NCBI GenBank assembly: GCA_041690855.1
Contig: JBEPVU010000001.1
Span: 1 to 29,156, forward strand
Direction: 5' to 3'
Length of the DNA: 29,156 bases
From: Gammaproteobacteria bacterium
GTDB taxonomy: Bacteria; Pseudomonadota; Gammaproteobacteria; CAIUAS01
Below are positions 2,512-29,156 of the stretch, one piece after another; positions within the stretch are counted from its first letter, which is position 1; the number at the start of each line of letters is the position of its first letter. The translations under genes were made by a program, and so were the position numbers. The notes below the pieces were generated by a model. That model did no database searches and was not told the DNA's origin. It worked only from the letters and a program-made list of their open reading frames with translations.

Positions 2512-3795
2512 ATGGTAATAGCAAAGCGTAAGTCTATATTATATTTCTGGTTTGTGCTAAAGCCTTGGCAACGCATTATTTTGGGATTACTGCTGGGTAT
2601 TGCTACCGGTTTGATTTTTGGCCAGAAAGCGACTTATTTAAAACCTATTGGCTCCTTATTTATTAATGCCATTCATATGATGATTGCGCCCGTGGTATTT
2701 ACGGCGATTGTCTGTGCGGTATTAACCATGCATGATCCGCATAAAATGCGGCGTATTGGCACTAAAACCATTTTGCTCTATACCGCTTGTATGATAGTGG
2801 CGGCGAGTATTGGCTTAGGCGTTGGTACATTAATTGCACCTGGCCATGGGTTGCAGCCATTGCCGGGCGATCCTGGCAGTGTTGCTAAGGCAGTCCCTTC
2901 TTTAAGTGAACTTATTATTAATATTATTCCGGCTAATCCGGTGGCGGCTTTTGCTGCAGGCAATATTCTGCAGATTTTAGTATTTGCACTGATTTTAGGC
3001 ATTGCGATTAATATGGCGGGAGAAAAAAGCCAGCCAGTGGCGGATTTTTTCCGCGCTTTTTCCGGGGTAGTATTTAAGTTAACAGCCATCGTAATGAGTT
3101 TTGCGCCCGTTGGTATTTTTGCCTTAATGGCCTGGGTAACGGGTGAGTTTGGCATGGGAGCGTTGATACCGTTAATGAAGCTGGTGGCAACGGTTTATTT
3201 TTGTTGTCTTTTACATTGCGTGCTGGTGTATGCCGGTTCACTGGCGGCGCTTAAGTTAGAGCCGCGGCATTTTTTCAAGGGGGCGGTGGATGCTATTTTA
3301 ATGGCGTTCAGTACGTCCAGCAGTGCGGCGACTTTGCCGGTGACGATGCGTTGTGCGGAGGAGAATTTAGGTATTTCAAAAGGGGTGTCGGGATTTTTGT
3401 TACCGCTGGGGACTACATTAAATTTGAATGGCTTATCGATTTATTTAGGCGTTGCCACTGTTTTTGCAGCGAATATGTATGGTGTGCATTTATCGCTGGC
3501 GCAGTATGTGACGGTGGTGGTTACGATTGTGTTGACTTCTATGGGCGCCGGGGGCGTACCTGGTTCGGCGATTATTGTGATGGGCGCGGTGATGAGTTCT
3601 GTTGGGTTGCCGCTGGGCGCTATTCCTTTGATTGCGGGTGTTGATCGGTTAAATGATATGGCGCAGACGACGACGAATGTGCTGGGTGATTTATATGCGG
3701 CTGTGGTGGTTGCGAGGAGTGAGAAGGAATTGAATTTGAAGGTTTATAATAGTTCGAATGATGCAACGGAGATTGAAGAGGTTCCTTCTGTATGA
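2512..3795 (+). CDS. Dicarboxylate/amino acid:cation symporter (DAACS, GltP/GltT-like)
   Basis: Multi-TM 427 aa with AFSTSSSAATLP, LPLGTTLNLNG, GAGGVPG and GVDRLNDMAQTTTNVLGD motifs. Confidence 0.92.
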   Translation: MVIAKRKSILYFWFVLKPWQRIILGLLLGIATGLIFGQKATYLKPIGSLFINAIHMMIAPVVFTAIVCAVLTMHDPHKMRRIGTKTILLYTACMIVAASIGLGVGTLIAPGHGLQPLPGDPGSVAKAVPSLSELIINIIPANPVAAFAAGNILQILVFALILGIAINMAGEKSQPVADFFRAFSGVVFKLTAIVMSFAPVGIFALMAWVTGEFGMGALIPLMKLVATVYFCCLLHCVLVYAGSLAALKLEPRHFFKGAVDAILMAFSTSSSAATLPVTMRCAEENLGISKGVSGFLLPLGTTLNLNGLSIYLGVATVFAANMYGVHLSLAQYVTVVVTIVLTSMGAGGVPGSAIIVMGAVMSSVGLPLGAIPLIAGVDRLNDMAQTTTNVLGDLYAAVVVARSEKELNLKVYNSSNDATEIEEVPSV

Positions 3796-4301
3796 CGACA
3801 TCTACATTGCCAGGTAAACGGGTGAGTGAATCGGCGGTGCATGAGCATACGTATAAGGTGTTTCCCAATGATTTGAATTCGTATGGTACTGCTTTTGGTG
3901 GGATGATTATGGCAATCCTGGATCGGATTACGCTGGTGGTGGCGGAAAGGCATAGTAGTAAGACTTGTGTGACGGTATCAGTGGATGCAATGCATTTTCT
4001 AGCCCCAGCGGGGCAGGGTGATATTCTATTGTTTTATGCATCAATTAATCGAAGCTGGCGTACCTCAATGGAAATTGGTGTAAAAGTATTAGCGGAGCAT
4101 TATCAAACGGGTGAGAAACGGCATATTTTATCGGCTTATTTTACCTTTGTAGCCTTGGATGAAGAGAAACAACCTGCAGAAGTTCCCCCTGTAATCCCCG
4201 AAACCCCTACCGAAAAACGCCGCTACAGCGAAGCGGGCAATCGGCGTGAAAGACGGCATCAAGAAGCCGCCGAACGAAAAGCAGGATGGCAGAAGGAATA
4301 A
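3792..4301 (+). CDS. Acyl-CoA thioesterase (hotdog fold, YciA-like)
   Basis: VFPNDLNSYGTAFGG, VTVSVDAMHF, SMEIGVKV, SAYFTFVALDE. ATGA overlap with the symporter stop. Confidence 0.9.
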   Translation: MTTSTLPGKRVSESAVHEHTYKVFPNDLNSYGTAFGGMIMAILDRITLVVAERHSSKTCVTVSVDAMHFLAPAGQGDILLFYASINRSWRTSMEIGVKVLAEHYQTGEKRHILSAYFTFVALDEEKQPAEVPPVIPETPTEKRRYSEAGNRRERRHQEAAERKAGWQKE

Positions 4302-4939: not shown

Positions 4940-6616
<1,677 letters not shown>

Positions 6617-19154: not shown

Positions 19155-21452
19155 ATGAAAAAATACCGCAATAAAATATTATTCTCAGTTGGATTATTAG
19201 CTGCTTCATTCCTCTTACTTGCTCAACCAGCTCATGCAGATTCAACGCCTTTAAGCTTGATTAACATTTATCCGAACACATATTATTCTGATATTCATCG
19301 ACATAATATATATTATTATTTATTAAAAAATAATCAAGCTAACCCTGTTTTCTTTGAAATAAGTCCACTTACTCATGGGCTGCACGTTAATCAACGTATT
19401 TCTACTTGTAGTAATGGTTTAGCGGCAGGTGCAAGCTGCAAATTAGTAATCAGTTTTGATGTACCTAACAAAATAGGTCAAATACAAACTCAGCTCATTA
19501 TTACTACTAAAGATAAGCAATCTATTCAATTTCCTCTTACGTATAATGTTCCTGCTAAACCTACAGCAATTAAAACTATTGCCAGTACAAGTGTTGATCA
19601 TTGGCAAGCAACTGGCCCTTATGGCGGTCAAGTGATGGATATTGCTATTTCTCCCTCTGATCCAAATCATTTATTTGCAGGTGTTTATGGCGCAGGGGTG
19701 TATAAATCAACTGATGGCGGTAAAAATTGGACGCCAGTAAATAATGGTATGACTACTTTAAATGTTCAACAATTGCTAATAAAGGGTGACGCAATTTATG
19801 CTGTTACTTTTGATGGTGGAATTTTTAAATCTAACGATGATGGCACGCATTGGATAGCTATAAATAATGGTTTGCCTTTTCCTGCTTATATTGGTGTTCT
19901 GGCTGCTGATAACAATACCTTATACGCGAGCGATGATGTTGGTGGGATTTTTCGTTCTACTGATGGAGGTATCCATTGGACAACAATAGGAAATAATTTT
20001 CCCGAAAATGTGAATTCCAATGCGATACTAATAAAAGGCAATGTTATTTATGCAGGGACAGAAGGCGCAGGACTGCTTAAATCTGAAGATAGCGGAAAAA
20101 CATGGGCATACGCTAATAATGGAATAGGTAATAATGTTATAAATACTTTATTCGATGATAACGGTATTTTATATGCAGGTACACCCAATTACGGAGCAAC
20201 AGATGATTCGGTATATAAATCAACAGATGGTGGACAACATTGGACACTGGCGAGTAATGGTTTAGGTATCAACAATATCACTAGCTTTGCAAAACAAGGT
20301 AAAGCTATTTATGCCGGTGCAGGTTCTCAGTCAGTGGGTAATGGAGTATTAATATCGCATGGCGGAGTATTTAAAACCACTGACGGTGGCAGAATCTGGA
20401 CACCGATTGCCAGGCTTGATTATCAATTTGTAGATAAAGTTATTGCAAATAATTCTACATTATATGCTGCAACGGCTGGTGGACTTTATCAAAGTAGAAA
20501 CGGTGGCAGTAATTGGACTGCAATAAACAATGGAATTAATGGTAATTGGATAACCAGCCTGCTGGTATTACCAGATGCTATCTATGCGGGCACTGCAACC
20601 TCTGGCATTTTCAAATCAACTGACAATGGTATGACTTGGGCATCTATAAATGCTGAAACTAATCTCAATAATAGTTTAGGCATTATTGGCATAACTTCTG
20701 ACAACAACAAAAATATTTATGTAAATTACATAAGCTCTGAAATAACGCGAGGACAATATACGCTCACAGGTATATATAAATCATATGATGGCGGACACAG
20801 TTGGATATTATTAATTCCTCCTAGTCATGGCACGAATCCCGTTATACCTTCTGCAATGTTAAATCAAGACTCAGCTTTCTATATTGGAACGGTAATGTGG
20901 GGCGTTTACCAATCTCTGGATGGTGGAGCATCATGGCAGCAATTTGCTCCAGGATTTCCTAACGAACAAATAGCTAGTATGACTGTTTTAAATAAAATGT
21001 TTTATGTTATTAACAACGGTCTTGGTATATATAAAACTTCTATTTCCGGCACAGAGCAATGGAACAGCGCATTTGGTAATCTGCCTTCTATACAAGTAAT
21101 AAATGGTTTAGTACCTGTAAAAAATGGCTTGCTTGCAAATTCCTTACTAGTGCTTACTAATCTAGGAATCTATGCAAGCAAAGATGGCGGACAAAACTGG
21201 CTGCCACTCAACAATGGATTACTGCCTTATACTAATGTTACTAGCTTACTACAGCTTAATGACACTACCTTTATCGCTGGTACATCTGATGGTATATATA
21301 AGTCAATTGATAGCGGTCAAAACTGGTGGCCAGATAGTAATGGCCTGAATCAAATTGTTCCTATTAATAATTTAGTGAGCGATGGTAATTATGAATTTGC
21401 CGGAACGATGGCGGGAATTTATAGAGCGAGCTTACTACCAAAAACTAATTAA
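19155..21452 (+). CDS. Secreted protein: Ig-like domain plus BNR/Asp-box beta-propeller
   Basis: Signal peptide MKKYRNKILFSVGLLAASFLLLAQPAHA (start moved from 19095). Cys-pair Ig-like domain (TCSNGLAAGASCKL). About 13 S-x-D-x-G-x-x-W Asp boxes. Confidence 0.8.
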   Translation: MKKYRNKILFSVGLLAASFLLLAQPAHADSTPLSLINIYPNTYYSDIHRHNIYYYLLKNNQANPVFFEISPLTHGLHVNQRISTCSNGLAAGASCKLVISFDVPNKIGQIQTQLIITTKDKQSIQFPLTYNVPAKPTAIKTIASTSVDHWQATGPYGGQVMDIAISPSDPNHLFAGVYGAGVYKSTDGGKNWTPVNNGMTTLNVQQLLIKGDAIYAVTFDGGIFKSNDDGTHWIAINNGLPFPAYIGVLAADNNTLYASDDVGGIFRSTDGGIHWTTIGNNFPENVNSNAILIKGNVIYAGTEGAGLLKSEDSGKTWAYANNGIGNNVINTLFDDNGILYAGTPNYGATDDSVYKSTDGGQHWTLASNGLGINNITSFAKQGKAIYAGAGSQSVGNGVLISHGGVFKTTDGGRIWTPIARLDYQFVDKVIANNSTLYAATAGGLYQSRNGGSNWTAINNGINGNWITSLLVLPDAIYAGTATSGIFKSTDNGMTWASINAETNLNNSLGIIGITSDNNKNIYVNYISSEITRGQYTLTGIYKSYDGGHSWILLIPPSHGTNPVIPSAMLNQDSAFYIGTVMWGVYQSLDGGASWQQFAPGFPNEQIASMTVLNKMFYVINNGLGIYKTSISGTEQWNSAFGNLPSIQVINGLVPVKNGLLANSLLVLTNLGIYASKDGGQNWLPLNNGLLPYTNVTSLLQLNDTTFIAGTSDGIYKSIDSGQNWWPDSNGLNQIVPINNLVSDGNYEFAGTMAGIYRASLLPKTN

Positions 21453-21485
21453 TAGGGCATTCCCACCACGAGATTTGAAGGGTTT

Positions 21486-21517
21486 TGACTATTTTGCAGA
21501 CCGTTACAAAATAGTCA
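21486..21517. terminator. 11-bp hairpin between convergent genes, possible terminator
   Basis: TGACTATTTTG-N10-CAAAATAGTCA, with no clean U tract on either strand. Confidence 0.4.
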
Positions 21518-21524
21518 GCTATAT

Positions 21525-22538
21525 TTAACCTTCCATTGCCTGCGTATATTTCCCCTTGCACGCCGCTGAATTTAATTGAGCGCGTTTATAAAAAGCCTGT
21601 TGCGCTGCTTTAACATTTTCCAGTTTGCCTTGCCAGGTTTTTAAGCAGGTATCCTGTAAAGCGCGGCCATAAGAGAAGCTTAATAACCAGGGATTTTGCT
21701 TAGTGACGTTCATAGCGTTTAAGTGCGCTGTGGCGAGTTCTGAGCGTTGACCGCCGGACAAGAAATTAATAGTAGGCACGGCAGCGGGAACAGTACGGCG
21801 TAGAATTTTTACGGTAGCTTGCGCAACGGCTTCTGTGCTGGCTTGTGGACGATGATCAGCGCCGGTAATTACCATACCGGGTTTTAAAATCATGCCTTCT
21901 AAAATAACGCCGTATTTATTTAAAGCGCTAAAAACGGCTTGTAACGTTTTTTCGGTGGCTTCGGCGCAGCGTTCCAAGGTGTGATCGCCGTCCATTAATA
22001 ATTCAGGTTCTACGATAGGTACAATGCCTTGGTTCTGGCAAATCGCTGCATAGCGGGCAAGGGCTTGCGCATTGGCACGGATTGCCAGTGGGCTGGGTGT
22101 GCTGGCGGAGATGTTTAATACCGCGCGCCATTTTGCAAAACGCGCGCCCATTTCTTTGTAACTGGCTAAACGTTCGGCGAGGTTGTCTAATCCCTGGGTG
22201 ATGGTTTCATCCGGGGTGTTGGGTAAGTGGGTAATGCCTTTGTCGACTTTAATGCCGGGAACAATGCCTTTTTCAGCCAGTAATTCAGGAAATAATTTGC
22301 CATTGCCGGCGCGTTGGCCTAAGGTTTCTTCGTATAAAATAACGCCGTTGATAAATTCTTCAATGCCGGGTGTGGTGAATAATAATTCACGGTAGGCGCG
22401 GCGGGTTTCGGAAGTGGATTCTAGTTGGATGCTGGTGAAGCGTTTGGTGATGGTGGCGGTGCTTTCATCAGCGGCGAGAATACCTTTGCCGGAGACGGCG
22501 ATTTGTGCGATGGTGGCTTCGAGTTCGTGTCTAGACAT
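21525..22538 (-). CDS. fba: Class I fructose-bisphosphate aldolase (eukaryote-like glycolytic family)
   Basis: GKGILAADES, GIKVDKG, FAKWRAV, IVPIVEPE, Schiff-base Lys in ILKPGMV, FLSGGQ, FSYGRALQ. Confidence 0.95.
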   Translation of the reverse strand: MSRHELEATIAQIAVSGKGILAADESTATITKRFTSIQLESTSETRRAYRELLFTTPGIEEFINGVILYEETLGQRAGNGKLFPELLAEKGIVPGIKVDKGITHLPNTPDETITQGLDNLAERLASYKEMGARFAKWRAVLNISASTPSPLAIRANAQALARYAAICQNQGIVPIVEPELLMDGDHTLERCAEATEKTLQAVFSALNKYGVILEGMILKPGMVITGADHRPQASTEAVAQATVKILRRTVPAAVPTINFLSGGQRSELATAHLNAMNVTKQNPWLLSFSYGRALQDTCLKTWQGKLENVKAAQQAFYKRAQLNSAACKGKYTQAMEG

Positions 22539-22632
22539 TTTATAGCTCCCTTATTTTAGGTAATTAAATGGGCGACAGTATTCTATCTTCGTGGAGAAAT
22601 ATCAAGAGTGGTAGGATATACTGTGTTGAGTC

Positions 22633-22755
22633 TGTGCCGGTTCAGTCTGCCGGTTGTTCTTTGGTAAACACGCTGTGAATACATCCGTGTACGCTCGGCT
22701 GCCGCATCCATGCGGCAGACGGTTTACCAAAGAACAACCGGCAGACTGAACTAAA
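22633..22755 (+). repeat. 123-bp structured dispersed element, copy 1
   Basis: TGTGCCG, perfect 30-bp inverted arms (22640-69/22722-51) enclosing two CA-TCCN-TG hairpins, then TAAA. A same-length copy is at 28593. Confidence 0.92.
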
Positions 22756-22794
22756 TACTTTAGTTTTTGAAAAAGTATAAAGTGAAGGATTGTT

Positions 22795-23727
22795 ATGCAA
22801 TATAAAGATTATTACGCCATTATGGGGCTTAAGCGGGAGGCTGCGCCGGAGGAGATTAAGCAGGCTTATCGTAAGCTGGCGCGTAAGTATCATCCAGATG
22901 TGAGTAAGGAAAAAGATGCGGAGGAACGCTTTAAGGAAGTGAATGAGGCGTATGAGGTATTAAAAGATTCGGAAAAGCGTAAGCAGTATGATCAGTTGGG
23001 CGCCAACTGGCGGGCAGGCGAGGAATTCAGGGCGCCGCCGGATTGGCAGCAGCAGCATTGGGGCGGGCAGGGTGCGCGTTTTGAGACAGAAGATTTTGCA
23101 GGCGGAGATTTTAGTGACTTTTTTTCTTCGCTATTTGGTGGCAGGTTTCGGCAACAGGCACACTCGCATCAGGCGGGATTTAATCGGCGGGGTGAAGATT
23201 TGCAAAGTAAAATTACTATTTCATTAGAAGAAGCATATGCAGGTACAATGCGTGCTATTCAGTTAAGTGGCGGAGCCAAAGGCGCACGTGAGTTAAAAGT
23301 TAAAATTCCTGCGGGCGTTATACAGGGACAGCAGATTCGGTTAAGCGGACAAGGCAATCCTGGCATGGGTAAAGGCGAACCTGGCAATCTTTATCTGGAA
23401 ATTAATCTAAAGCCCCATCCTTTTCTACAGGCGGATAAAGCTGATATTTATTTAACGCTGCCTGTTACGCCGTGGGAAGCTGCTTTAGGCGCTACCGTGG
23501 CCGTCCCCACCTTAGGCAGCAAAGTGGATTTAAAAATTCCGGCCGGTTCACAATCAGGCCAGAAACTCCGCCTCAAAGGCCGTGGCTTACCGGCTAAAAC
23601 GCCAGGCGATCAATATATCACCCTGCAAGTCATGCTGCCGCCCGCCAATACACCCGCACAGCGTGAACTATACGAACAAATGGCGCAGCAAATGCCTTTT
23701 AACCCGCGTGAACGGCTAGGAGGCTAA
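22795..23727 (+). CDS. cbpA: DnaJ-class curved DNA-binding co-chaperone CbpA
   Basis: J domain with HPD, G/F region, no zinc finger, DnaJ C-terminal domain. Followed by cbpM. Confidence 0.88.
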
Positions 23728-23728
23728 A

Positions 23729-24046
23729 ATGAAAAAGCACGTGACGGAAATAGTAACGGGCATCATTGTTGACGAAACCACCACGTTTACCTTGCAGGAA
23801 GTCTGTTATACCTGCGACATCAACGTTGAAATAATCACAGAAATGGTAGAACACGGCCTGATCGAACCCCAAAAAGCCGATACGAGCGACTGGCAATTTG
23901 ACCCCCATGCCTTACGCCGCTTAAAAATAGCCTTACGTTTACAAAAAGACTTAGGCATCAACTTACCTGGCGCTGCACTGGCACTCGATTTACTTAACGA
24001 ATTACAAGAACTGCGCGACAAACTGGCTATTCTTGAAAATAATTAA
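23729..24046 (+). CDS. cbpM: Chaperone modulator CbpM (MerR-like)
   Basis: EMVEHGLIEP, WQF, RLQKDLGINLPGAALALDLL. 1 nt after the cbpA stop. Confidence 0.9.
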   Translation: MKKHVTEIVTGIIVDETTTFTLQEVCYTCDINVEIITEMVEHGLIEPQKADTSDWQFDPHALRRLKIALRLQKDLGINLPGAALALDLLNELQELRDKLAILENN

Positions 24047-24061
24047 ATAGCAAAAGTGATT

Positions 24062-24208
24062 TTCACCTCTCCCCCCGGGAGAGGTCGCCGCGTAGCGGCG
24101 GGTGAGGGAGCGCTTATCAGCATGAAATACATTCTTGAAGAAAGCGGTGTTAATTCCCCTCACCCGCCCAGGCTACGCCTGGTCGGCCTCTCCCGCTGGA
24201 GAGGCGAA
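24062..24208. repeat. REPIN-like inverted doublet (CCTCTCCC/GGGTGAGGG family)
   Basis: Left unit 24062-24108 and right unit 24157-24208 are inverted. Each has a CCTCTCC/GGAGAGG hairpin, a GTA-loop hairpin and CGGGTGAGGG. Confidence 0.88.
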
Positions 24209-27032: not shown

Positions 27033-28592
27033 ATGTCTATGTCAACACAAATGCAAATCAGCCCGGCAGAAATCAGCGAGCTTATCAAGCAGCAGATTTT
27101 AAATTTCAGTGCGAAAGCCGAAACACGTACAGAAGGCACGATCGTTAATTTAAAAGACGGTATTGTGCGCATTCATGGTTTAGGCGATGTCATGTTAGGC
27201 GAAATGATTGAATTTCCTGGCGGCAGCTACGGCCTGGCTTTAAACCTTGAACGCGATTCCGTGGGCGCCGTTGTGTTAGGCCCTTATGATCATTTAACCG
27301 AAGGGCAAGTGGTTAAATGTACCGGCCGTATTCTGGAAGTACCTGTAGGTGAAGCTTTATTAGGCCGCGTGGTTAACGCCTTAGGTCAACCGATTGATGC
27401 TAAAGAACCTATCATGACGACTACCACTTCACCCGTGGAAAAAGTAGCGCCTGGCGTTATCTGGCGTCAATCTGTTTCACAACCGTTACAAACCGGCATT
27501 AAAGCCATTGATACCATGACGCCCGTTGGCCGCGGCCAGCGCGAATTAATTATCGGCGATCGGCAAACAGGTAAAACAGCGATTGCTATTGACGCCATTA
27601 TTAATCAGAAAAATACCGGCGTTAAATGTATTTATGTGGCCGTTGGCCAGAAAGCGTCTTCCATTGCAGCCATTGTTCACAAATTAGAAGAACATGATGC
27701 TATGAAGCACACCATTATCGTTGCCGCCAGCGCCGCCGATTCCGCTGCACTGCAATTTATTGCACCTTATGCAGGTTGTGCAATGGGCGAATATTTCCGC
27801 GATAAAGGTGAAGATGCTTTAATCATTTATGATGATTTAACCAAGCAAGCCTGGGCTTACCGGCAGATTTCACTATTATTGCGCCGTCCGCCAGGCCGCG
27901 AAGCGTATCCAGGCGATATTTTCTATTTACATTCCCGTTTATTGGAACGAGCTGCGCGTGTTGATGCAGAATATGTTGAAAAAGCAACGCAAGGCCGAGT
28001 AAAAGGCCGTACGGGTTCGTTGACTGCTTTACCGATTATTGAAACACAAGCCGGTGACGTATCCGCGTTTGTACCAACCAATGTTATTTCTATTACTGAT
28101 GGCCAGATCTTTCTGGAAACGGATTTATTTAATTCGGGTATTCGTCCTGCTATTAATGCAGGGTTGTCTGTATCGCGTGTGGGTGGTGCGGCGCAAACTA
28201 AAATCGTGAAGAAATTAGCGGGTGGTATTCGTATTGGTTTAGCGCAATACCGTGAATTAGCGGCGTTTTCACAATTTATGTCTGATTTAGATGAGACGAC
28301 CCGCAAACAATTAGAGCGTGGTCAGCGCACGACAGAAATTTTAAAGCAGAAACAATACGCGCCTATGAGTGTAGCGGAAATGGCGGTGAGTATGTTTGCC
28401 GTGGATCGGGGTTATCTGGATGATGTTGAATTAGGCAAAGTCATTCCGTTTGAGCATGAATTGCAATCTTACATGCGGGCGCATGAGCGTGATTTATTGA
28501 ATAAAATTAATGAGTCGGGCGATTATAATGATACGATTGCGGGTGAGTTGAGTGTGGCGATTGAGAAATTTAAAGCGACAAGTACTTGGTAG
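27033..28592 (+). CDS. atpA: ATP synthase F1 alpha subunit
   Basis: [42 protein letters not shown]. Start is 27033 or 27039. Confidence 0.98.
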
Positions 28593-28715
28593 TGTGCCGG
28601 TTCGCCTGTCAGGTTGTCTTTTGGTAAACACGCCGTGAATACATCCCTGTAGGCTCGACTGCCGCATTCATGCGGCAGACGGTTTACCAAAAGACAACCT
28701 GACAGGCAAACTAAA
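28593..28715 (+). repeat. 123-bp structured dispersed element, copy 2
   Basis: TGTGCCG immediately after the atpA TAG, 29/30-bp inverted arms (28600-29/28682-711), the same twin inner hairpins, then TAAA. Confidence 0.92.
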
Positions 28716-28741
28716 GTTTAAGAATTGAAAGAGAGAGACGA

Positions 28742-29156
28742 ATGGCAGTAGCGAAAGAAATACGTACGAAAATCAGTAGTATTAAAAGCACGCAGAAGAT
28801 TACGCGGGCGATGGAGATGATTTCGGCGGGGAAAATGCGTAAGGCGCAGGATAGAATGGCGTTGTCGCGTCCGTATGCGACTAAAATCCGGCAGGTGATT
28901 AGCCATTTAGCCAGTGGACATTCGGAATATCGGCATCCGTATCTGGAAGTGCGTGAAAATAAACGCGCGGGTTTTATGCTGGTGACCTCTGATCGCGGGT
29001 TGTGCGGTGGATTGAATTCTAATTTATTGAAAACCGCATTGCTGGAAATGAAAACGCTGCGGCAGGCGGAAATAGAAATTGATTTGTGTTTGATTGGTAA
29101 TAAAGCGGAAGCTTTTTTTAAGCGGCATGGCGGCCATATATTGGCGGAAGCTAATC
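28742..29156 (+). CDS. atpG: ATP synthase F1 gamma subunit (5' part, runs off the window)
   Basis: Absent from the ORF track. My translation: [36 protein letters not shown]...[14 protein letters not shown]. Confidence 0.95.

Follow-up and report, generated by a model that had tools for sequence, protein, structure and literature searches.

Why are the silent codon positions of two divergently transcribed genes shifted towards the same two bases on the same physical strand? This question is raised by the junction between fba and cbpA in a gammaproteobacterial genome, where a 123-bp hairpin repeat occupies the spacer and the plus strand is rich in G and T at third codon positions on both sides of it, a pattern hereafter called a halo. 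The stretch analysed (the window) is the entire 29,156-bp contig C1 (JBEPVU010000001.1) of the genome bin G000, which also holds a second copy of the repeat with a weaker halo. The observation is confirmed: it is real, highly significant and replicated within the genome. The mechanistic reading first proposed for it, namely recurrent nicking or processing of the element that exposes single-stranded DNA (ssDNA) to deamination, is partly supported. The features needed for the argument are the following.

21525..22538, minus strand: fba, class I fructose-bisphosphate aldolase (Pfam Glycolytic, 488.7 bits), with its 5' third inside halo 1
22633..22755, minus strand: repeat copy 1, a 123-bp hairpin between the divergent fba and cbpA (inverted repeat I1)
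22795..23727, plus strand: cbpA, DnaJ-like curved-DNA-binding protein (Pfam DnaJ and DnaJ_C), with its 5' third inside halo 1
22152..23085: halo 1, plus-strand G/T enrichment at third positions (patch called by a hidden Markov model, HMM)
28593..28715, minus strand: repeat copy 2, between atpA and atpG (direct repeat D1 and inverted repeat I2)
28050..29152: halo 2, weaker and polarised like halo 1, covering the 3' end of atpA and the 5' end of atpG (third-position G/T bins; HMM patch 28792-29152)

Composition of the halos in the window

The bin G000 comprises 2.0 Mb in 308 contigs (40% G+C, approximately 6x depth, 92% complete, 0.13% contamination), and its source run, a freshwater-sediment metagenome, is the sole public run containing the organism; it was found in no RNA run. 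The genomes used for comparison are the congeners G001, from a genome collection, and L198, from a metagenome, as well as G029, a member of the same class. Gene order in G001 is syntenic, with nucleotide identities to G000 of 79% in fba and 71% in cbpA; the fba product of L198 shares 85% amino-acid identity with that of G000.

The third bases of fba codons 2-52 comprise 30 C, 14 A, 7 T and no G, so that 44 of these 51 codons end in C or A. This share drops to 12/25 and then 5/12 toward the 3' end of the gene, in agreement with the original prediction that this work follows up. In cbpA, codons 2-60 end in G 25 times, in T 20, in A 11 and in C 3, which gives 45 of 59 codons ending in G or T, very close to the 44 of 58 that had been estimated. 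The bias belongs to the physical strand, as had been proposed, since the same composition is found on the G/T strand in genes of either orientation. In five consecutive 50-codon bins read on the plus strand from 22146 to 23151, the G:C counts are 21:4, 26:0, 27:3, 22:2 and 19:8, and the share of G and T at third positions (GT) is 0.72, 0.86, 0.80, 0.78 and 0.70. The next bin falls to 0.54, and the rest of the contig shows mostly 0.40-0.66.

Patches were called by a three-state HMM on third-position composition that was blind to repeats; purine-rich calls in two giant genes were excluded from the patch statistics. The HMM delimits halo 1 at 22152-23085, with G111, C13, A35 and T67 over 226 sites, and this extent takes in the first 129 codons of fba, the first 97 of cbpA and the spacer between the two genes. 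The genome background was taken from 22,748 windows of the 50-codon type, in which GT has a mean of 0.497 and a standard deviation of 0.10. Only 92 of these windows (0.4%) reach a GT of at least 0.86 or at most 0.14, and the binomial tail for 43 of 50 is 1e-7.

The first and second codon positions are hardly altered in halos, and protein identity to the congener is equally high inside and outside the halo 1 patch. The differences in the halos are therefore real substitutions that passed selection and not sequence errors. Independent Logan contigs of the source run, whose depth is even at approximately 6-7x, are identical to 19917-22385 and 22704-24085 (0 differences). As these contigs cross both borders of halo 1, the borders are not assembly joins, and the chimeric assembly that the original prediction had named as a possible flaw is excluded. 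In intergenic DNA the shift is weaker and has the same direction, with GT values of 0.64 and 0.56 beside halo copies vs 0.55 and 0.47 beside other copies.

Repeat copy 2 shares 85% identity with copy 1 and has an identical orientation. Around it, GT ranges from 0.58 to 0.83, with five of the six bins at 0.68-0.83; at the same junction G001 has no element and a GT of 0.48-0.60.

The bias follows the physical strand

At fourfold sites read on the G/T strand, genes coded on that strand show G.56, T.25, A.12 and C.07, and genes coded on the other strand show G.59, T.20, A.15 and C.06, compared with approximately.23/.31/.21/.25 (G/T/A/C) in the background. In halos, G/(A+G) at twofold sites is.61-.67, up from.25, and T/(C+T) is.92-.93, up from.76. 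The genes under patches lie on either strand (55 vs 33), and in four divergent gene pairs a single patch of one sign extends over both genes.

Because patches span genes of either direction as well as divergent pairs, codon selection, 5'-end effects and transcription-coupled bias can be removed from the list of explanations. A transcription-associated bias does not account for patches on genes of both strands, and a codon effect of gene 5' ends does not account for halo 2, which covers the 3' end of atpA. Two-ended resection of a break was rejected as well: it would switch the sign of the bias at the element, yet the sign is equal on both sides.

Link between repeat copies and halos across the genome

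A BLAST search identified 44 copies of the repeat in G000, and an nhmmer profile search adds nine places outside this set. When the 44 copies are aligned by element orientation, the GC skew at third positions is 0.3-0.5 within ±700 bp and approximately 0.05 beyond 1.2 kb, so the orientation-dependent skew expected in such a meta-plot is present. Approximately 16 copies bear a halo. In these, a symmetric plateau with a third-position GC skew (GC3 skew) of approximately 0.75 and a GT of 0.73-0.82 extends to approximately 600 bp on each side and is gone by approximately 1.1 kb. The half-widths around the element range from approximately 0.2 to 1.2 kb and are mostly 0.4-0.9 kb.

Large patches, which were called blindly, touch 14 of 42 copies vs 29 of 776 intergenic spacers (3.7%), corresponding to an odds ratio of 12.9 (p=2.5e-9). 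The patch sign is concordant with element orientation in 13 cases and discordant in one (p=0.002), and two more copies, truncated at contig ends, are also concordant. In the seven patches assembled on both sides of the element, its relative position within the patch is 0.54 ± 0.11 (p=0.009 vs uniform), i.e. the element is central.

The sign of the patches is also related to the background skew of the contigs. Patch sign agrees with this skew at halo copies by 7:1 and over all large patches by 39:13; the orientation of the element agrees with it by 21:7, and that of halo-free copies by 10:5. The G/T strand is probably the G-rich strand in the replication sense, presumed to be the lagging-strand template, as judged from short contigs.

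No oriented halo was found for three other palindromic families of G000, namely families B, C and D with 53, 71 and 43 copies. Families B and C are approximately 3-fold enriched at patches (6/53 and 9/71 vs 3.7% of spacers), with inconsistent orientation. Element-free patches with family B or C copies in their central spacers occur at C38:4666-4917, C58:6210-6418 and C16:2930-3044 and in contigs C12, C26 and C48.

Two further proposals were tried and rejected. Unassembled copies at contig ends are not the cause of the element-free patches, as 11 of 38 such patches lie near ends vs 25% expected. A guide role in trans for the copy-specific arms was also rejected, with 2 of 117 12-mer matches falling in patches vs an expected share of 2.7%. 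Hidden hairpins were not found inside in-gene patches.

The purine-rich stretches (G and A) that the HMM flagged in the two giant genes, at C63:3-2274 and C145:1908-5109, lie in genes with internal repeats and show a different type of bias.

The halo is specific to the G000 lineage

In G001, the element is absent from all five orthologous loci compared (fba/cbpA, atpA/atpG and three other halo loci), and the halo is absent too. GT at orthologous silent sites is approximately 0.5-0.64 in G001 vs 0.8-0.98 in G000, and at a locus of opposite polarity 0.36-0.48 vs 0.06-0.16. At the fba/cbpA locus of L198, a short spacer is found, with neither element nor halo. The bias is thus lacking in the orthologues without the element, at five loci in G001 and one in L198, which was a further point on which the original prediction could have failed. 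In a 167-kb sample of G001, 0.4% of silent sites lie in patches and no patch reaches 100 sites, compared with 3.0% of silent sites in G000, and the lone G001 copy of the element has no adjoining patch. The halo state is derived in the G000 lineage together with the insertion.

Homologous elements of other gammaproteobacteria include four single loci with a strong rise of G over C toward the element within the gene on its left side, namely L134 (a Marinobacter metagenome-assembled genome, MAG), L136 (Marinobacter excellens), L094 and L143. At L134, the G:C counts at silent sites change from 19:31 to 34:13 toward the element, with the same polarity as in G000; the effect is not significant over the 80 loci compared.

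The repeat is a TwoAYGGAY-like hairpin

On its minus strand, copy 1 has two small hairpins, with the loops AUGGAU (8-bp stem) and ACGGAU (4-bp stem), enclosed by a 30-bp basal stem. The arms of this stem, at 22640-22669 and 22722-22751, are perfectly complementary. Weinberg 2010 (PMC2864571) presented TwoAYGGAY (RF01731) as a likely RNA occurring in gammaproteobacteria, Clostridiales and gut metagenomes. Csr/Rsm binding has been proposed for the family. The element shares its two AYGGAY-loop hairpins and the common basal stem around both. The RF01731 covariance score of copy 1 is 38.0 bits (E = 6.5e-5 in a 211-nt search, minus strand). As this is below the gathering score of 43, the element is TwoAYGGAY-like and is not filed as a member of the family. 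The gathering score was reached nowhere in the 29-kb stretch or at six other loci, and a search of 41 genomes gave no match at genome-scale E-values, a result that is uninformative.

Across nine copies, compensatory double changes affect 19 of 48 pairs while the basal stem is kept, and no single-sided (wobble, G-U) intermediates were found in the arms of these copies. Because the double changes come without wobble intermediates, the perfect Watson-Crick arms fit a hairpin that is kept or used as DNA at least as well as one used as RNA. The predicted ssDNA fold has approximately -51 kcal/mol on both strands (z = -12 to -13).

Halo-free and halo copies differ in structure. Most of the halo-free copies have the full length of approximately 215 bp, with outer terminal inverted repeats of approximately 30 bp ending in TATA (e.g. 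in C22, C57, C78, C83, C85, C135, C257 and C287). In the halo copies, the recognisable part is the inner 123-bp hairpin only, the arms have diverged copy by copy, and the outer repeats are absent. The repeat has terminal inverted repeats, many dispersed copies and no coding capacity, which are the hallmarks of miniature inverted-repeat transposable elements (MITEs). The halo-free full-length copies look like young MITE insertions and the halo copies look old, to judge from their sequences. No cognate autonomous element or transposase with the same ends was found, and the outer repeats occur elsewhere only as stray fragments; as the bin is 92% complete, this absence is unproven.

The 28-nt core of the element is present in more than 117 gammaproteobacterial contigs (Marinobacter, Microbulbifer, Cellvibrio, a Legionellales MAG and others) and also in G029. 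Some halo copies are immediately adjoined by GCYGT-type 5-mers in runs (C141, approximately 4990-5030; C46, approximately 5120-5150). These runs resemble the arrays of 5-6-nt repeats that a preprint (10.64898/2026.09.22.753630) reports next to Pseudomonas TwoAYGGAY elements.

Direction of substitution in the halos

Changes were polarised on the G000 branch using G001 and L198 as outgroups, and only unambiguous silent changes were counted. In halo 1, 27 of 160 silent sites changed; read on the plus strand, these changes comprise 17 A>G, 3 G>A, 2 T>G, 2 C>T and one each of C>G, T>A and T>C. In the remainder of fba and cbpA, 46 of 288 silent sites changed, including 12 A>G and 11 T>C. The asymmetry between A>G and T>C differs between halo 1 and the remainder of the two genes (p=0.005).

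Relative to G001, four loci taken together show the following net changes when read on the G/T strand: A>G +207, T>G +82, C>T +53 and C>G +49. G is therefore a sink, C is nearly eliminated, transversions contribute, and only G gains at fourfold sites. The original prediction had read the direction of the bias as C>T and A>G deamination of a single-stranded plus strand. This holds in part: A>G and C>T are in excess on one physical strand whatever the gene direction, as deamination of ssDNA requires, but the transversions T>G and C>G are strand-biased toward G as well and depart from that expectation.

Candidate enzymes

The same prediction had suggested an HUH or other repeat-associated nuclease acting on the element. 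G000 has one HUH (Y1_Tnp) gene, which encodes an IS200-type TnpA (C249:3020-3496, 140.9 bits) and lies between its own short hairpin ends. The 123-bp repeat does not adjoin this gene, and only family C occurs elsewhere on contig C249. As the single TnpA has ends of its own and is unlinked to the repeat, the suggestion of an HUH nuclease serving the element is not supported. An arrangement of the REPIN/RAYT type was not found either, as no HUH nuclease of G000 is flanked by the repeat or specific for it. The IS200-type Y1 transposase was not found in the congener G001.

Loss of repair genes in G000 was rejected as a cause, as MutS, Ung and EndoV are all present. A reverse transcriptase was also rejected, with one weak match in G000 and more matches in halo-free relatives. 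No Y-family (IMS) DNA polymerase was found in the 92%-complete bin of G000, and G001 (C153:4357-4800) and G029 each have at least one.

Other features of the window

A further patch in the window has the polarity of halo 1 but no repeat copy.

3141..3974: element-free G/T patch at the junction of overlapping symporter and thioesterase genes (HMM: G127, C17, A34, T102)

The G001 orthologue is itself moderately G/T-rich in this region (0.54-0.78), and the patch is therefore only partly lineage-specific and partly gene-intrinsic.

A MerR-type CbpM is encoded directly after cbpA. Its gene contains a short patch of opposite polarity at 23812-23971, where the plus strand is C/A-rich (G4, C24, A20, T6). 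This patch sits just left of a REP-like doublet at approximately 24060-24200, which belongs to family C, a family without an oriented halo overall. A long minus-strand open reading frame at 28711-29154 is an antisense shadow of atpG (28742-29155, plus strand, Pfam ATP-synt). Its third-position register is the same as that of atpG, and it is kept open by the skewed composition.

Possible origin of the halos

On the strand opposite to the one that reads AYGGAY in the loops, silent positions of the halos follow the order G > T >> A > C, irrespective of gene direction, for approximately 0.4-0.9 kb to either side of the element. The explanation that we favour, to which we give a little short of an even chance, is that a strand-specific substitution bias, anchored at the element and active in cis over a long time, has left the halo as its accumulated footprint at old TwoAYGGAY-like copies. 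We infer that this bias stems from a gap or from ssDNA on one and the same strand. In this explanation, the hairpin would repeatedly cause one of the two strands around it to be exposed as ssDNA or to be synthesised anew, and the likely form would be a gap on one strand that spans the element with a half-width of approximately 0.6 kb. A recurrent one-strand gap of this kind would agree best with the data, because the bias affects the same strand on both sides, is centred on the element, has a half-width of approximately 0.6 kb and is oriented.

Such a gap could originate from stalled fill-in of the lagging strand or from a strand-specific nick that is enlarged on both sides. A>G and C>T would result from damage to the exposed strand, and one strand would gain G and T if the gap were refilled with biased misinsertion (dG opposite T, A or G; dT opposite G); either process could be the cause, or the two together. 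Selection would purge non-synonymous changes, so that only silent sites would drift to the new equilibrium. The nick would lie on one strand in the case of exposed-strand damage and on the other in that of biased refilling, two cases that composition by itself does not distinguish; the flows of other bases to G favour a contribution from misinsertion. A stronger claim, which is possible but doubtful, is that the TwoAYGGAY-like subfamily acts as a natural, cis-anchored, strand-specific mutator, in which a nick or stalled fill-in at the hairpin would open a gap of approximately 0.6 kb on each side and rewrite the silent sites of neighbouring core genes. If so, the 27 internal patches without a copy might mark excised copies or other triggers.

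Several results weigh against a footprint of the element. In G000, no halo surrounds 26 copies, most of which are full elements of approximately 215 bp whose outer terminal inverted repeats are intact. A copy is present at 15 of the 53 patch loci and absent from the other 38; 27 of the latter are internal to contigs, and neither a copy nor any notable hairpin was found at these 27. Homologous elements in G029 (six loci) show no general halo, and at 80 loci from other gammaproteobacteria neither the oriented excess (mean 0.039, p=0.10) nor the difference between proximal and distal parts of the same gene (mean 0.022, p=0.48) is significant, so the halo as a general property of the repeat family is unsupported. 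The element is thus not sufficient for a patch, because there are halo-free copies in G000 and homologues elsewhere without a general halo, and it is not necessary, because there are internal patches without a copy. As had been proposed, the bias is centred on the element in the set of halo copies.

The substitution data raise further objections. Deamination would not be expected to produce the T>G and C>G flows, and no neighbour-base signature of a deaminase or polymerase was found, the shift being alike with every 5' and 3' neighbour. The claim that neighbouring core genes are mutagenised was not demonstrated, as no rise in rate is detectable on the G000 branch, either at silent sites (17% in the halo vs 16% outside), which are near saturation and could mask a raised rate or a past burst, or at amino-acid positions (13/219 vs 45/421). 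The data show an altered direction of substitution, a pattern that also fits fixation bias. No candidate enzyme was found in the G000 bin. In addition, the halos are documented in one genome only, a MAG of 6x depth and 308 contigs, in which the direction of replication is inferred from skew alone.

A common cause of element and halo would account for part of these results, although we consider it on the whole unlikely. One-strand, ssDNA-prone zones of kilobase size would arise independently, in relation to replication, and the repeat would insert or persist there in a strand-defined orientation, as do ssDNA-dependent transposons. The 38 patch loci without a copy are what this predicts, as are the agreement of patch sign (39:13) and of element orientation (21:7) with the background skew and the mild enrichment of other palindromic repeats at patches (6/53 and 9/71 vs 3.7%). 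A passenger, however, would lie anywhere in its patch, whereas the element is central (p=0.009), young full-length copies are never found in patches, and the halo half-widths fall within a narrow range around the element. The patches could also be tracts of approximately 1 kb imported by recombination from an unsampled close relative with an extreme genome-wide replication-strand bias, together with the repeat copies of this donor. Such an origin, which we regard as quite unlikely, would explain naturally why the halo copies form a distinct, diverged subset without outer inverted repeats and why element-free patches exist; the patch sizes resemble those of recombination tracts, and the patch sign follows a replication-type skew. 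Nevertheless, we know of no bacterial genome with a GC3 skew near 0.8, and the presence of 15 copies in approximately 2.4% of the genome would imply approximately 600 copies in the donor, unless import was targeted to the element. Several halos fade gradually from the element without the block ends of a tract, and amino-acid divergence is not raised within them. Third-position identity to G001 is 0.51 in halos (0.57 outside), far above the approximately 0.28 calculated by hand for unrelated sequences of these compositions.

Selection on strand composition is very improbable. It would keep the flanks G-poor on the AYGGAY-sense strand, as structure-free DNA or a Rho substrate, or G-rich on the other strand, for R-loops or RecA loading, so that the hairpin can work. 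A strand made only of C and A, or only of G and T, cannot fold on itself, and favoured changes are up approximately 1.8x and disfavoured ones down to approximately 0.4x relative to the rest of the genes (hand arithmetic), as fixation bias predicts. However, such selection would have to be effective on hundreds of silent sites, on both sides and up to 0.7 kb away, and to operate within genes regardless of their direction of transcription, and most copies in G000 and all sampled homologues elsewhere do without a halo. An artefact of chimeric assembly, polishing error or mixed strains is barely conceivable: the bin is fragmented and 6x deep, and contigs break at repeats, but the changes affect only silent positions with protein identity kept, the Logan contigs span both halo borders without differences and at even depth, and contamination is 0.13%.

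Significance

In the halos, the skew overrides codon preference in the housekeeping genes fba, atpA and atpG. If the element is causal, the halos would offer a natural means of studying the disturbance of replication or repair by hairpins in living cells; mobile repeats would be seen to influence codon usage and the local mutation spectrum in the sequences next to them, and the footprint could separate old, young and possibly excised insertions. Were the mutator claim true, the mutation spectrum of a bacterial chromosome would be reset locally by a mobile repeat. If the tracts are imports, they would instead indicate that some unsampled relative has a genome-wide strand bias without precedent.

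Comparison with known systems

A description of such halos was not found in the literature searched, in agreement with the original prediction, which knew of none. The closest bacterial parallel in kind is the replication strand asymmetry, with a leading strand rich in G and T: in both cases, G exceeds C and T exceeds A on one strand, independently of gene direction. Unlike this asymmetry, the halos have a GC3 skew of approximately 0.75 vs a contig background of mostly 0.1-0.25 (absolute), extend over approximately 1-1.5 kb and not over a replichore, and are anchored to a repeat and oriented by it. To our knowledge, no replication mechanism exposes both sides of a hairpin on the same strand.

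The element resembles repetitive extragenic palindromes (REPs; REP/REPIN-RAYT) and IS200/IS605 in being a palindromic extragenic repeat with an orientation tied to the replication strand, these systems being handled via ssDNA hairpins. It differs from REP/REPIN in that the HUH gene of G000 is unlinked to the repeat, and the REP-like family C shows no oriented halo. As far as we know, no halo has been reported for REPs.

Phase 2 of somatic hypermutation and the EvolvR nickase-polymerase both create a kilobase-scale window of strand-specific mutation at a defined site, with an A>G excess on the resynthesised strand. By analogy, the halo may resemble strand-polarised, error-prone patch synthesis after a nick. 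In contrast to these systems, no Y-family polymerase was found in the 92%-complete bin of G000, and there is no hotspot context and no visible rise in rate.

With TwoAYGGAY (RF01731), as far as it is described in the available parts of PMC2864571 and of the preprint of Li et al. 2026 (10.64898/2026.09.22.753630), the element shares AYGGAY hairpins on a long basal stem, many copies, a spread like that of mobile elements and GCYGT-type repeats beside some copies. It differs from these descriptions in the outer 30-bp terminal inverted repeats of its full form and in its score below the gathering threshold. No compositional halo is mentioned for TwoAYGGAY in the same parts of these two sources. 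The halo also offers a testable property for this family.

In vertebrate mitochondrial DNA (mtDNA), A>G and C>T changes affect the strand that is single-stranded longest. The halos share with mtDNA asymmetry, as presented in the available parts of PMC9561281 and PMC11792237, an extreme silent skew, the near loss of one base (here C,.06-.07) and the leading role of A>G; the halos, too, would be interpreted by a strand that is single-stranded for part of the time. They differ from it in being local patches in a bacterial chromosome and in the contribution of T>G and C>G. Bacterial strand skew is normally seen as a chromosome-scale property set by replication and transcription; in G000, it is found at kilobase scale, is mtDNA-like in its extremity, and is tied to the copies of a repeat and to their orientation.

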